DNA of 64,000 nucleotides, taken from the NCBI GenBank assembly GCA_964473815.1, contig CAYYQK010000001.1:881-64880 (forward strand), written 5' to 3'. Numbering within the stretch: position 1 is the stretch's first letter; each line of letters starts with the position of its first letter. The DNA comes from an uncultured Candidatus Saccharibacteria bacterium (GTDB lineage Bacteria > Patescibacteriota > Doudnabacteria > UBA920). A program made the position numbers and the translations under genes. The notes under the pieces are model-generated. The model was given only the letters and a program-made list of their open reading frames with translations, made no database searches and had not been told where the DNA came from. This document shows, one piece after another, positions 18,101-32,885 of this stretch.

Positions 18101-18445
18101 ATGAAAATTTTTAAAGAAATTGCTATTGCATTAGCAATTACTGCTTTGTTACAAGGTGGGATTTTTGCGATCGCAAGAGCTGCCGACGGACTAACAACTC
18201 CTTTCGGTGGGTTTGTTTTTAGTTTCGTTCCACCATCTCCGATCTGCCCAATTGCGCATCAGGTTTTATATAACTATGCCAACAACACAATAATGGGGGT
18301 AGCTCTCACTCCTGCTTCTTCACCACACCTCAACTATAAATTTTATGCAGCTGATGTATTTGTGTTAGGAACAGTTTATTCCGCTCCTATTCCTTGTTTG
18401 TTGCCATATCCAATTTATCCAATTGAACAAGCCGGCACTTCTTAA
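18101..18445 (+). CDS. small secreted hydrophobic protein; possible pilin-like subunit (speculative)
   Basis: Signal peptide MKIFKEIAIALAITALLQGGIFA. 85-aa mature part with two hydrophobic segments and 2 Cys. First gene of the T4SS-like block. Confidence 0.4.
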   Translation: MKIFKEIAIALAITALLQGGIFAIARAADGLTTPFGGFVFSFVPPSPICPIAHQVLYNYANNTIMGVALTPASSPHLNYKFYAADVFVLGTVYSAPIPCLLPYPIYPIEQAGTS

Positions 18446-18461
18446 TCCAAAGTTAGAAAAA

Positions 18462-19199
18462 ATGAACAACGCTAAAACAAAATTACAATCTCTTGGTTTC
18501 ACTTCAGGACACGCGCAGTTACTAACCGTAGCTGTTGCGGTTTTCGTCGTGCTCTTTGTTGCGAAGAGTGGAATCAATTGGAAAACAGTTTTTGTACATG
18601 CTGATTCTCAAACACACATGCTAACTTATGATGAAGCTTTAGCACAAGCGCAAAATGAAATCGGCGCAGTTAACCCAAATCAAGATGACGGTTCAGCAGA
18701 ACAAATTGCTTTGCTTGATCGCAGCAACATTGATGGAAAAGTTTTGGGTGATGCAATTGGTGTTGGTGAAATTCCTGACGCTGATCAAATGTTGTTGCCA
18801 GATATTGTGAATCAATTGAAGATAAATAATTCTAACAATGATTCGCAAGCTGCGCGACAGCAATATGTTTCAGCTGTTCAAAAAATTGAAAACGATGCAC
18901 AGATCACAAGTTTGCTCGCAGACTTAAATACAGATGACAAAGACACATTGCGAAGTTCGGCTGACGGGTGGAATTGGACAATCAAACAAATTAGTAATGT
19001 CCCGGTACCACCAAGTTTGCAAAAATATAATCAGGACAAGTTAGTTTACTATTCGGTGATCATGAACATTGCCAAAATTTATGCCGGTGACCAATCCGAG
19101 GATGGCCTGCCATTAATGACAAAAGCAATGATAAGTTACAGCGACAAAATGGATGCATTGCAACAACAATTAAATTCTCAATACAATTTGGGTTTGTAG
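18462..19199 (+). CDS. membrane-anchored hypothetical protein (start set at ATG; the listed ORF begins at TTG 18423, overlapping the upstream gene)
   Basis: N-terminal TM (LLTVAVAVFVVLFVA), then an extracytoplasmic domain. Confidence 0.45.
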   Translation: MNNAKTKLQSLGFTSGHAQLLTVAVAVFVVLFVAKSGINWKTVFVHADSQTHMLTYDEALAQAQNEIGAVNPNQDDGSAEQIALLDRSNIDGKVLGDAIGVGEIPDADQMLLPDIVNQLKINNSNNDSQAARQQYVSAVQKIENDAQITSLLADLNTDDKDTLRSSADGWNWTIKQISNVPVPPSLQKYNQDKLVYYSVIMNIAKIYAGDQSEDGLPLMTKAMISYSDKMDALQQQLNSQYNLGL

Positions 19200-19212
19200 T
19201 TAATATAGAGCG

Positions 19213-30533: not shown

Positions 30534-30534
30534 T

Positions 30535-31635
30535 ATGTTTTTGGACGACGACCGCGATTTCTCTTCGTCCTCGGACGCAGTTCGTCGAGCGGACGATGAG
30601 CTTTTTAATGATGGTTCGACCGTTGCAGATTCTGAATATCAAAGCACTAACGAATACGGTCAGCAAGATCCAGATTATCAGGCTTATCGGCAGTCAGAGC
30701 AGCAACAGGAACGCAAACGTAGTTTATTAGAAGAAGCCAAACGACAAGCTCGACGAGGTCGGGCAACTGTACAAAACACAGTTCCTAAAAAACTTGGAGA
30801 AGCATTAGGTGATAAGCACATGTTCCGAGATGATACAGACGAAGCACGCGAAAGAGCCAAAGAAATAGCCAGAAAAAAGGCGCGCAAAGCCGCCTCTGAT
30901 TTTATTGGCGACAAAGTTGCTGACAAAGGCCTGAAGACAGGAATGCGTAAAGCGCTGTCTAAAGAAGCGGGCGCTACTGCTAAAGCAGGGGCGAAAAAAG
31001 CCGCGCAGTCGGTTGCTAAAGGCGCAGCAAAAACTGGTGCAGAAACCGCAGCTAAGGAAGGGGTAAAGGCGGGAGCGAAACTCGCAGCTGATAATATTGG
31101 AACAGCTGTTGGTGCAGCTACTGGTGTGGAAACATTTGGATTTGGGTTTTTACTTGGATTATTGATTAATATCGCGGTCAGCTTAGGAGTGAATGATGTT
31201 GTTGATGCAGCCTTTGAATTAAGTAGTGGAAATTTTAAGCGCGCCCGCTTTTTATACATTAGAGGTGGTACACGAGTCGGTATATTTGTTATTTTCTTAT
31301 TAGTCATAATCGGGATGTTAACCATTGGAGGGATGATCGCAGCAATACCAGCATTATTTGCCTTAAACATTTACATGATTTTAGGAAAAATTTATCCGAA
31401 TTTTGCGCCACTGCAAGGTATAGTCTGGTGGGAAGCAGCGATAATTATTATCATTGATATTTTTGCAATTTTAATAGCCTTTGCATTTATAATGAGCTTG
31501 GGTTGGTATTTGTGCAATGGTGTAGGTACTACGGCGGTCGCTGTGTATAACTGGTGGAGCCCAAGTGCTGCCGGAAGTGTGGCAGCTCAATTCTGTAAAT
31601 TTGTTAATACTGTTGCTGGAACCATTAAGCCGTAA
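30535..31635 (+). CDS. membrane protein: acidic disordered N-terminus, K/A-rich segment, ~5 TM helices (VirB6/TrbL-like or other T4SS membrane component, speculative)
   Basis: Composition and hydropathy only. Immediately follows the VirB4-like gene. Confidence 0.45.
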   Translation: MFLDDDRDFSSSSDAVRRADDELFNDGSTVADSEYQSTNEYGQQDPDYQAYRQSEQQQERKRSLLEEAKRQARRGRATVQNTVPKKLGEALGDKHMFRDDTDEARERAKEIARKKARKAASDFIGDKVADKGLKTGMRKALSKEAGATAKAGAKKAAQSVAKGAAKTGAETAAKEGVKAGAKLAADNIGTAVGAATGVETFGFGFLLGLLINIAVSLGVNDVVDAAFELSSGNFKRARFLYIRGGTRVGIFVIFLLVIIGMLTIGGMIAAIPALFALNIYMILGKIYPNFAPLQGIVWWEAAIIIIIDIFAILIAFAFIMSLGWYLCNGVGTTAVAVYNWWSPSAAGSVAAQFCKFVNTVAGTIKP

Positions 31636-31739
31636 CGAATGTTAAAATTTTGATTTTCATCATCAAAGATGGTATACTATAGAAAATTACAGATCAAGAA
31701 ACAAACAAGAAAAAGCGTTAGCAATAAAAGAAAAATTTT

Positions 31740-32885
31740 GTGAATAAAAGAGCGATTATTATTTTAGGAGCAGTTTTCATCCTGATTGTAGGGGTGTTAG
31801 GTTTTTTGATTTACAAACGCAGCACTTCCAATAGCAATTCCAATACGGTTGCCAATACTAATACTACAACTACACCCGTCCAAACCGAAACTCCGCCACC
31901 AGACAATACGCCTACTACTCCAGCCTCTGCCGCAGTTAGGTTAACTGATGCGGGCGATGCAATTATCACCCCGGCTTTGACTCTCCAGGGCAACGGTATT
32001 GATTATTTAAATACCAAGGGTCAGTTATTCCAAACTGATTATGATGTAACAGGCGGGACTGCCTTGCTAAAAAATAAGCGCGAACTTTCTATTCCTTTAA
32101 AATCCAGCATCTCGCAAATTATTTGGCCAACAGCTGGTAATAATTTTATTGCCCAGTTTAATACTGGCAGCAAGCCAACTTGGAGTGTATTCCAGGCCGA
32201 TAAAGCAGCCTACGCAGACATCCCGTCACAGGTTTATAGTATTGCCTGGATGCCAAGCGGAGACAAAGTGGCCTTTGTATGGGTCGATGGTTCGGGTAAA
32301 GCAACTTTGAACATTGGTAACCCAGACACAACCGGCTATCAATCTTTGTTTCAATTTTATGAATCTGATGACAACATAAGCGTTGCCCCAGATGGCCAAC
32401 ATTTCGCGTTTTGGCGAACACAGACTTCTGATTATTCTAGCAATCAAATTGTAATGGTAGACAAAACTGGGAAGATTTTCAACGTTATCGTAAAGGACGG
32501 ATATAATACTGGTGCAGTATGGAGTCCGGACAGCAAAAAGATTTTGTTTAATAAGCGGGATCCAAGTTCACAAAAGATGGCTCTTTGGGAAGCCGATGTA
32601 ACAACTGGTGAAACTAAAAATCTAAACGTAGATACAACCTTAGATAAAGTTCTTTGGTCCCGTGACGGCTTTACTGTTTTTGCGGGCGTGCCAAATACCG
32701 GAACTGCCGGACAAGGTTTAACGCAAGATACAATTTATAAAATCAATACTACTTCCGGTGATCAAAAGAAATTTGAACCTGGCTTAGCTGTAGACGCCCG
32801 TGCTTTGTTATTGAGCACAGATTTCTCTATTTTGTTCTTCCTCAACGCTCAAGACAATTCTCTGTACTATATTCCTGTAAACTAA
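31740..32885 (+). CDS. TolB-like beta-propeller protein with N-terminal TM anchor
   Basis: GTG start. Repeated PD40-like motifs (WMPSGDKVAF, WSPDSKKILF, APDGQHFAF). Confidence 0.55.
   Translation: MNKRAIIILGAVFILIVGVLGFLIYKRSTSNSNSNTVANTNTTTTPVQTETPPPDNTPTTPASAAVRLTDAGDAIITPALTLQGNGIDYLNTKGQLFQTDYDVTGGTALLKNKRELSIPLKSSISQIIWPTAGNNFIAQFNTGSKPTWSVFQADKAAYADIPSQVYSIAWMPSGDKVAFVWVDGSGKATLNIGNPDTTGYQSLFQFYESDDNISVAPDGQHFAFWRTQTSDYSSNQIVMVDKTGKIFNVIVKDGYNTGAVWSPDSKKILFNKRDPSSQKMALWEADVTTGETKNLNVDTTLDKVLWSRDGFTVFAGVPNTGTAGQGLTQDTIYKINTTSGDQKKFEPGLAVDARALLLSTDFSILFFLNAQDNSLYYIPVN

Follow-up and report, generated by a model that had tools for sequence, protein, structure and literature searches.

A predicted chromosomal type IV secretion system of the Patescibacteria type in a Doudnabacteria-like genome

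We analysed a 64-kb stretch of contig CAYYQK010000001.1 (hereafter the window) and found that positions 18101-32885 carry a block of genes built around a VirB4-family ATPase. Judging from its gene content and gene order, this block almost certainly encodes a chromosomal type IV secretion system (T4SS) of the Patescibacteria type. The explanation that accounts best for our results as a whole, and which we hold with good confidence, is that the locus is a vertically inherited Patescibacteria T4SS in a Doudnabacteria-like genome, that it descends from the MPF-FATA systems and that its relaxase and coupling protein were lost. We infer that its role is most likely the transfer of macromolecules across the interface between an epibiont and its host. 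The Patescibacteria T4SS is essential in the one species tested, and it is a leading candidate for macromolecule exchange between these metabolically minimal epibionts and their hosts.

The VirB4 cluster and its relatives

The identification of g9 as a VirB4-family ATPase, which a first-pass annotation of this DNA had proposed together with a GAGKS Walker A motif and a DEAW Walker B motif, was confirmed. The protein scored above the cut-off of the NCBIfam conju_CD1110 VirB4 model (4.3e-109, 365.9 bits, cut-off 325). In Pfam it matched P-loop_TraG (2.4e-25) as well as AAA_10, DUF87 and CagE_TrbE_VirB, and it matched the solved Thermoanaerobacter VirB4 domain 4AG5 at 7.6e-47, compared with 3e-4 for TrwK. 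Both motifs are intact (KSGAGKS and ILVLDEAW), and their GAGKS and DEAW cores are invariant across 19 relatives of g9.

The N-terminal region of VirB4 is encoded by a separate gene, g8, whose stop overlaps the start of virB4 by 4 bp. g8 matched the first ~125-235 positions of several VirB4 models, including positions 3-124 of CD1110 and positions 98-234 of VirB4_plasma (3.7e-11), and it also matched NCBIfam TrsD (1.9e-6). The source contig carries a precomputed Pfam TraC-like annotation for this gene, and a search of the PDB with g8 returned no match. As g8 covers positions 3-124 of the 752-position CD1110 model and g9 spans positions 157-728, VirB4 is encoded here as two pieces, which together make a near-complete protein. 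We also considered whether two VirB4 homologues of 804-807 amino acids, P0115 and P0119, are fusions of TrsD with VirB4. This was rejected because their N-terminal extensions are Pro-rich and are not TrsD. As a side observation, these two proteins are 78% identical to g9 and their Pro/Glu-rich extension is about 190 amino acids long.

The gene upstream of g8, g7, matched Pfam PrgI (8.5e-9, 36.3 bits, gathering score 27). Thus, the small protein with two transmembrane (TM) helices that had been annotated as a PrgI/VirB3-type component is indeed one, but it does not lie just upstream of VirB4 as had been stated, since the TrsD-like gene stands between them.

The fourth core component is g4, a predicted extended VirB6-like channel protein. 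Topology was assigned by a hydropathy scan, which placed no TM helix in g5, g6, g8 or g9. For g4, the scan gave a signal or anchor, an ectodomain of ~500 amino acids and about seven TM helices, which span residues ~537-830; the ~550 amino acids of the cytoplasmic tail are charged and coiled-coil-like. On its own, g4 gave a weak, sub-threshold match to Pfam TrbL/VirB6 (E=0.029, residues 604-827), and the source contig carries a precomputed, likewise weak TrbL_3 annotation. TrbL/VirB6 was matched by 16 of 34 positional orthologues of g4, with 2.5e-7 as the best value. Conservation of g4 across loci is confined to the TM core. The large hydrophilic domains of g4 are in keeping with the ‘extended VirB6’ type of a recent review (PMC12857230). 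A sequence-profile search of the PDB with the VirB6-like alignment returned coiled-coil noise only.

Related loci were obtained from a scan of one genome per species, which gave 80 loci with flanks of about 10 kb, and the window proteins were compared with these by tblastn and by iterative hidden Markov model (HMM) search. The loci are mostly labelled Patescibacteria (Doudnabacteria, Moranbacteria, Komeilibacteria, Falkowbacteria, Kerfeldbacteria and others), and some come from generic or evidently mislabelled records of metagenome-assembled genomes. There are thousands of VirB4 homologues; identity to g9 is 77-94% among the top 120, and the named ones among these are Candidatus Doudnabacteria or ‘Patescibacteria group’. 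Across Patescibacteria, VirB4 identity ranges from 58 to 94%. Among plasmids, the closest matches come from conjugation systems of Firmicutes and Actinobacteria, whose VirB4s are only 29-36% identical; this agrees with an ancestry in the monoderm MPF-FATA systems.

The gene order around virB4 is conserved. By tblastn, TrsD was found in 79 of the 80 loci, the exception (L012) having only 145 bases upstream of virB4, and PrgI was found upstream of TrsD-VirB4 in 72, the gaps being largely loci with short upstream sequence. Wherever the flanking sequence is long enough, a VirB6-like gene is found 3-6 kb upstream. In Doudnabacteria-like loci the order is ksgA, one to three secreted or anchored proteins, the VirB6-like gene, g5, g6, PrgI, TrsD and VirB4, followed by a variable membrane protein, zero to two small bitopic proteins, the PD40 protein, radA and, on the opposite strand, recG. 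Falkowbacteria-like loci also have radA and recG after virB4, and in several other loci ksgA and uvrD flank the cluster. As orthologous clusters with the same order occur in 80 independent genome contigs, this is not a chance arrangement. Thus, both HMM searches, in which the VirB4 model was matched, and synteny support the earlier proposal of a T4SS-like apparatus in which VirB4 is joined by a PrgI/VirB3 protein and a polytopic protein of the VirB6 type. The identities to the closest genome, L002 (Table 1), would fit a conserved motor with fast-changing interface or adaptor parts.

The block itself consists of 11 tightly packed plus-strand open reading frames (ORFs), or 12 if radA is counted, rather than the thirteen same-strand genes reported before. 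Neighbouring ORFs mostly overlap or lie 4-22 bp apart; larger gaps separate g3 from g4 (183 bp) and g10 from g11 (105 bp), and 170 bp lie ahead of radA. The first of these gaps contains a strong terminator-like hairpin, and we therefore propose that the block probably comprises two transcription-like units, an upstream unit of three genes (g1-g3) and an eight-gene core (g4-g10/g11). A promoter scan found sites no more numerous than in shuffled sequence.

Table 1. Positions of the cluster genes and of neighbouring features in the window, with identities to the closest related genome (aa, amino acids; TM, transmembrane)
Feature	Position	Strand	Identity to L002 (%)	Description
g1	18101-18445	+		Small secreted protein, 114 aa; signal peptide (hydrophobic N-terminus only); Cys/Pro/Tyr-rich
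g2	18423-19199	+		Bitopic protein; one TM helix, residues 33-51; extracytoplasmic part of ~200 aa
g3	19213-21168	+		Secreted protein, 651 aa; signal peptide; no Pfam or NCBIfam family
Terminator-like hairpin	21209-21240	+		14-bp stem and T-run, inside the g3-g4 gap; consensus match only
g4	21351-25514	+	52	Predicted extended VirB6-like channel protein, 1387 aa; polytopic
g5	25521-26720	+	41	Soluble cytoplasmic protein; conserved N-terminal helical domain 1-195; disordered Pro/Gln-rich tail
g6	26725-27507	+	41	Soluble cytoplasmic protein; N-terminal helical segment, Pro-rich linker, conserved C-terminal helical domain 170-258
g7	27530-27991	+	68	PrgI/VirB3-like; two TM helices, ~15-37 and 45-63; membrane dock for VirB4
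g8	27997-28692	+	76	TrsD-like, 231 aa; separately encoded VirB4 N-terminal region; between PrgI and virB4
g9	28689-30533	+	93	VirB4-family ATPase, 614 aa; motor, T4SS signature protein
g10	30535-31635	+	46	Membrane protein; charged N-terminal region of ~200 aa; 3-5 TM helices
g11	31740-32885	+	62	PD40 beta-propeller; N-terminal TM anchor; exposed outside the cell
radA	33055-34374	+	80	TIGR00416, 542.7 bits (cut-off 403); directly downstream of the block
recG	34916-37084	-		Near the block, downstream
comF	40712-41452	-		Near the block
recX	44887-45372			Near the block
recO	9750-10487			Close to the block
uvrD	14342-16516			Close to the block
LysM-CHAP peptidoglycan hydrolase	12692-13843	-		Pfam LysM 1.9e-15, CHAP 2.9e-15; PcsB-like 6.3e-17

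Systems of this kind have been described. Quinonero-Coronel et al. (2025; PMC12102498) studied 3,035 Patescibacteria genomes and found a monophyletic VirB4 clade nested in MPF-FATA, with TrsD, PrgI/VirB3, VirB6 and often VirB2-like pilins nearby. Relaxases were almost always absent and coupling proteins rarely nearby, KsgA was frequent in the neighbourhood, and loci of class ABY1 were linked to comF, recG and radA. Wang et al. (2023; PMC10633639) found that SEML1_0006-0019 are essential for epibiotic growth of Southlakia epibionticum (ML1). The order in that species is a VirB6-like protein, an NTF2-like protein, a large T4SS protein, PrgI, TrsD, VirB4, another large protein and lysozymes, without a coupling protein or a relaxase. 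In the window locus the same VirB6-like...PrgI-TrsD-VirB4 core is present, and a large protein, membrane or wall-active, comes after it; the locus is likewise chromosomal, has no relaxase or coupling protein nearby and is linked to ksgA, radA, recG and comF. As the published Patescibacteria T4SS shares this core, we regard the window locus as a member of the described system. The earlier judgement that the system is largely undescribed therefore does not hold for the system itself, although it does hold that most of the accessory proteins have no assignable family.

There are also differences from the described systems. S. epibionticum has two large polytopic proteins, whereas the window has one VirB6-like gene, and the protein after VirB4 has no lysozyme or SLT domain here. 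Conversely, the PD40 propeller stands out here, as does the g5/g6 pair. The terms ‘PD40’ and ‘propeller’ are absent from the main text of PMC12102498, and ‘PD40’ and ‘TolB’ are absent from the accessible part of its supplementary text. What appears to be new, from our sequence comparisons, is the g5 and g6 families, the linkage of PD40, the modular nature of the post-VirB4 protein, and a variant in which neither pilins nor a VirB8-like protein could be detected.

Cytoplasmic and wall-facing components

The 80-locus comparison sharpens the parts list of the Patescibacteria T4SS with respect to three components: the g5/g6 pair, the anchored PD40 propeller, and a modular post-VirB4 protein that sometimes carries a lytic transglycosylase domain. 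Each offers a defined starting point for modelling of interactions and for genetic work in relatives that can be cultivated.

The g5 family was found in 42 of the 80 loci, directly after the VirB6-like gene, and the g6 family in 60, immediately upstream of PrgI. In several lineages, single ORFs match both profiles (L063:1575-3470, L061:5311-7308, L040:6327-7739, L022:6113-7783, L018:5964-7496, L021:4921-6414, L027:5819-7129 and L079:4296-5780), which indicates that g5 and g6 are fused in some Patescibacteria. The g6 family is large: its members in a library of 1.84 billion proteins fall into 2819 clusters at the 50% identity level. Pfam scans of 48 members of the g6 family and 37 members of the g5 family gave no shared family. 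AlphaFold predicted, with confidence, the helical C-terminal domain of g6 (predicted local distance difference test >90) and the helical N-terminal domain of g5, and the remainder of each protein was disordered and Pro-rich. The homologue search for g5 gave only seven proteins, so its model rests on a shallow alignment; g5 itself was located on a 312-kb contig. Neither predicted fold matched a known fold.

The 1387-residue polytopic protein, the second polytopic protein and the propeller that had been listed before were all present. The second of these, g10, is a short form of a variable family of membrane proteins encoded after virB4, one without an extracellular enzyme domain. Close homologues were found only in L001-L004 and L026 among the 80 loci, and the membrane module of g10 aligned with the larger proteins encoded downstream of VirB4 in other loci (hhalign probability 94.3%, E=9.5e-8). 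In one of these larger proteins (L017:11864-14098), Pfam recognized an SLT lytic transglycosylase domain (2.6e-17). An SLT motif that we had read by eye in L005 was dropped, as Pfam confirmed SLT in L017 only.

The propeller, g11, matched Pfam PD40 (4.3e-7) and the NCBIfam TolB propeller model (4.3e-9), the latter with 35.8 bits against a cut-off of 343. Thus, g11 is not TolB, and the description of it as a TolB-like propeller is right for the fold but not for membership of the family. Like TolB, g11 has PD40 repeats and a propeller outside the membrane. Unlike TolB, it has a TM anchor in place of the TolB N-domain, it belongs to a monoderm, and no Tol-Pal genes are present in the window. Full-length homologues of g11 lie downstream of virB4 in about 44 of the 80 loci.

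In 43 of the 80 loci, a further family, of bitopic proteins of ~200 amino acids, occupies the place right behind virB4 or the one ahead of the PD40 gene (for instance, L055:11866-12501, L050:11862-12440, L005:14995-15561 and L017:14002-14595). Full-length matches to this family are absent from the window; Pfam gave it no match, and it may be the VirB8-like component that has been reported mainly for class ABY1. We rejected these post-virB4 proteins as relatives of PD40, because the iterative search had matched them through the TM and linker region only, a similarity of composition.

The proteins at the head of the block are the least conserved, within the limit that the 10-kb flanks set on these counts. 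Homologues of g3 were found in 11 loci of the Doudnabacteria-like group, in each case immediately preceding the VirB6-like gene; in other loci this position is taken by one to three signal-peptide or TM proteins, and the counterparts are fast-evolving. g2, whose true start is likely the ATG near 18462, matched no Pfam or NCBIfam family and has one homologue among the 80 loci, in L001. g1 matched no Pfam or NCBIfam family and has no homologue among the 80 loci; it is lineage-specific, and its membership in the machine is uncertain.

No protein with an SLT, lysozyme or CHAP domain is encoded within the cluster. A LysM-CHAP peptidoglycan hydrolase (Table 1) is encoded about 4 kb upstream, on the opposite strand, and we speculate that it could stand in for the missing VirB1-type wall-opening enzyme. 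Also a few kilobases upstream of the block is a gene for a 603-residue DUF11 surface protein (10524-12335, plus strand).

Inheritance and function

The block had also been put forward as a possible conjugation apparatus, with a search for att repeats or a relaxase as a way of recognizing an integrative and conjugative element (ICE). We found neither. Relaxases and coupling proteins were absent from all scanned ORFs of the window, that is, those of at least 100 amino acids except 12665-13123, 48578-48898 and 63165-63821, whose products (152, 106 and 218 amino acids) are too short to be a relaxase or a coupling protein. No integrase adjoins the block, and the only repeats flanking it are short and at chance level. 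As the housekeeping context is conserved and a relaxase, a coupling protein, a flanking integrase and att sites were not found, we conclude that the locus is a vertically inherited chromosomal machine and not an ICE.

It is true that VirB4, PrgI and VirB6 derive from a monoderm conjugation lineage, that the GC content of the block (0.39-0.41) is slightly below that of its flanks (0.41-0.43), and that a fragment of a serine recombinase lies at the start of the window. An ICE or its remnant, which would move itself or chromosomal DNA to other cells, could account for these features. However, the position between ksgA and radA/recG is kept in many genomes of several classes, which speaks for vertical inheritance rather than insertion, and the recombinase, a truncated fragment (86-1096) and the sole recombinase in the window, is 17 kb upstream of the block beside a tmRNA gene. 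Taken with the missing relaxase, coupling protein, integrase and att sites, these results make an ICE very improbable.

The locus can also be compared with MPF-FATA systems (pCF10 Prg, pGO1 Trs and the Clostridium difficile conjugative transposon CD1110 type). The best curated VirB4 model is that of the CD1110 family, PrgI and TrsD components are shared, and the architecture is that of a monoderm, without VirB7, VirB9 or VirB10. Unlike the conjugative members of the class, the window has no relaxase, coupling protein, oriT context or mobile element. It also has no PrgK/TraG-type two-domain hydrolase in the block, and it has g5, g6 and the PD40 propeller in addition.

Based on these results, we propose a model of a vertically inherited Patescibacteria T4SS. 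In the membrane, hexamers of VirB4, completed by TrsD, would dock via PrgI onto the VirB6 channel in a single cytoplasmic membrane. On the cytoplasmic face, g5 and g6 may act as adaptors in the place of a coupling protein. On the outside, g10, the VirB6 ectodomain, g1-g3 and the anchored PD40 propeller would make up a fast-evolving part that crosses the wall and faces the host.

What such a machine would carry can be approached by analogy. Like two DNA-uptake systems, ComB of Helicobacter pylori and the crenarchaeal Ced system (CedB), the window locus has a VirB4-type motor without a coupling protein or relaxase. Its neighbourhood is rich in recombination and competence genes. The likeness has limits. 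The CedB model gave 42.3 bits against a cut-off of 700 and CedD 18.4 against 600, which indicates generic VirB4/HerA similarity only. ComB is a diderm system (VirB2-4/6-10), and no VirB7, VirB9 or VirB10 was found here. From the ComB and Ced analogy, the missing coupling protein and relaxase, and the radA/recG/comF/recX/recO/uvrD neighbourhood, we tentatively suggest that the system might import host nucleic acids and hand them to RadA, RecG and ComF functions. We regard this as somewhat likelier than effector export. A recent preprint (2026; 10.64898/2026.06.21.733656) reports that a cultivated Patescibacterium takes up host RNA and has tubes resembling T4SS pili. A fuller version, in which the phylum-wide g5 and g6 families replace the coupling protein and pass host DNA or RNA to RadA, RecG and ComF, and in which PD40 and the secreted proteins set host specificity, is unlikely to be correct.

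The machine may instead export proteins, such as epibiont toxins or lytic or host-manipulating factors, into or onto the host, in which case the repair-gene neighbours would be coincidental. In view of the missing coupling protein and relaxase, Wang et al. (2023; PMC10633639) lean towards protein export or some other role for the S. epibionticum system, and Bordetella Ptl and Brucella VirB do secrete proteins without a coupling protein. Additionally, g1-g3, the rapidly changing secreted proteins with which the block opens, might be its substrates or act as tip proteins. However, Pfam and NCBIfam scans found nothing recognizable as an effector, a toxin or an immunity gene within the block or adjoining it, and g1-g3 bear Sec-type signal peptides or anchors, so that a T4SS is not needed for their exit. 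The linkage to radA and recG is also conserved across classes (see also PMC12102498). We therefore consider export a doubtful explanation, though a serious one.

A third possibility is that VirB4 assembles a pilus-like or wall-spanning attachment organelle and that nothing is translocated. VirB4 has been described as the assembly ATPase of T4SS pili (PMC12102498), the tube-like structures of the cultivated Patescibacterium are at the host interface (10.64898/2026.06.21.733656), and extracellular proteins dominate the variable part of the locus. Assembly alone, however, hardly explains a VirB6 channel protein or the conserved cytoplasmic g5 and g6, and a pilin gene of the VirB2 type was not found in the window. 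A purely adhesive machine thus seems improbable.

Several observations weigh against the proposed model as a whole, and some of them against import in particular. The first concerns missing parts. A scan for small ORFs with two helices in and beside the block yielded no VirB2-like pilin, the only free small ORFs with several TM helices being 1585-1986 and 34403-34720, and g1 matched no T4SS-pilin or TrbC family of Pfam at E <=0.1. S. epibionticum, by comparison, has six essential pilins. Pilin genes near virB4 are reported to be frequent but not universal (1135 of 1948 pilin-bearing assemblies), and they do not strictly define the T4SS of the Patescibacteria clade. No VirB8-like protein was found in the cluster (g2 has no Pfam match), nor was a counterpart of the NTF2-like SEML1_0012, and Pfam found no enzyme domain in g10, which thus lacks the hydrolase of its relative. 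A coupling protein, pilins or a relaxase could be encoded elsewhere in the genome, outside the window. The second concerns g5 and g6, which appear to be T4SS-linked families but carry no annotation; the case for their roles consists of position, conservation and fusion. Third, and against import, ComEC is dispensable in S. epibionticum while the T4SS is essential, so that import cannot run through ComEC if this finding generalizes. Last, and likewise against import, the linkage to radA and recG could be an inherited gene order without functional meaning.

Neighbouring genes

Judged by its genes, the rest of the window is ordinary chromosomal DNA. Housekeeping genes flank the block, with ksgA upstream and radA followed by recG, on the opposite strand, downstream. 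The window contains genes of translation (ArgRS, IleRS, ProRS, GatCAB, MiaA and RRF), of DNA repair and competence (RecO, UvrD, RadA, RecG, ComF and RecX, all within about 35 kb), and others (KsgA, a sigma factor, a ClpB/ClpC-type ATPase, MreB and MreC). The positions assigned earlier to radA, directly downstream, and to comF, recG and recX, nearby, were borne out by profile matches. We consider radA a possible functional partner of the machine and not a structural part of it.

The gap between radA and recG (34375-34915) is GC-richer than its surroundings. It contains a Cys-rich ORF of 118 codons on the minus strand (34442-34798) and a strong terminator-like hairpin on the plus strand (34751-34779). 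It had no match in Rfam and no protein or DNA counterpart among the 80 related loci. The recG ORF as called, with a GTG start at 37084, runs into a tRNA gene on the minus strand (37026-37098), which suggests that the true start lies further in, probably at MTYTLD. Next to it on the minus strand, a 166-residue protein with two TM helices and a weak DUF5673 match (37123-37623) adjoins recG in 34 of the 80 loci and belongs to the conserved neighbourhood.

At the other end of the window, the recombinase fragment is the C-terminal part of a large serine recombinase, with the Pfam Recombinase and zinc-ribbon domains and no resolvase domain seen. Its end abuts the 3' terminus of the tmRNA gene (1085-1472, minus strand), SmpB is encoded nearby (3462-3899), and the fragment looks like what remains of an island or prophage that had inserted at tmRNA.

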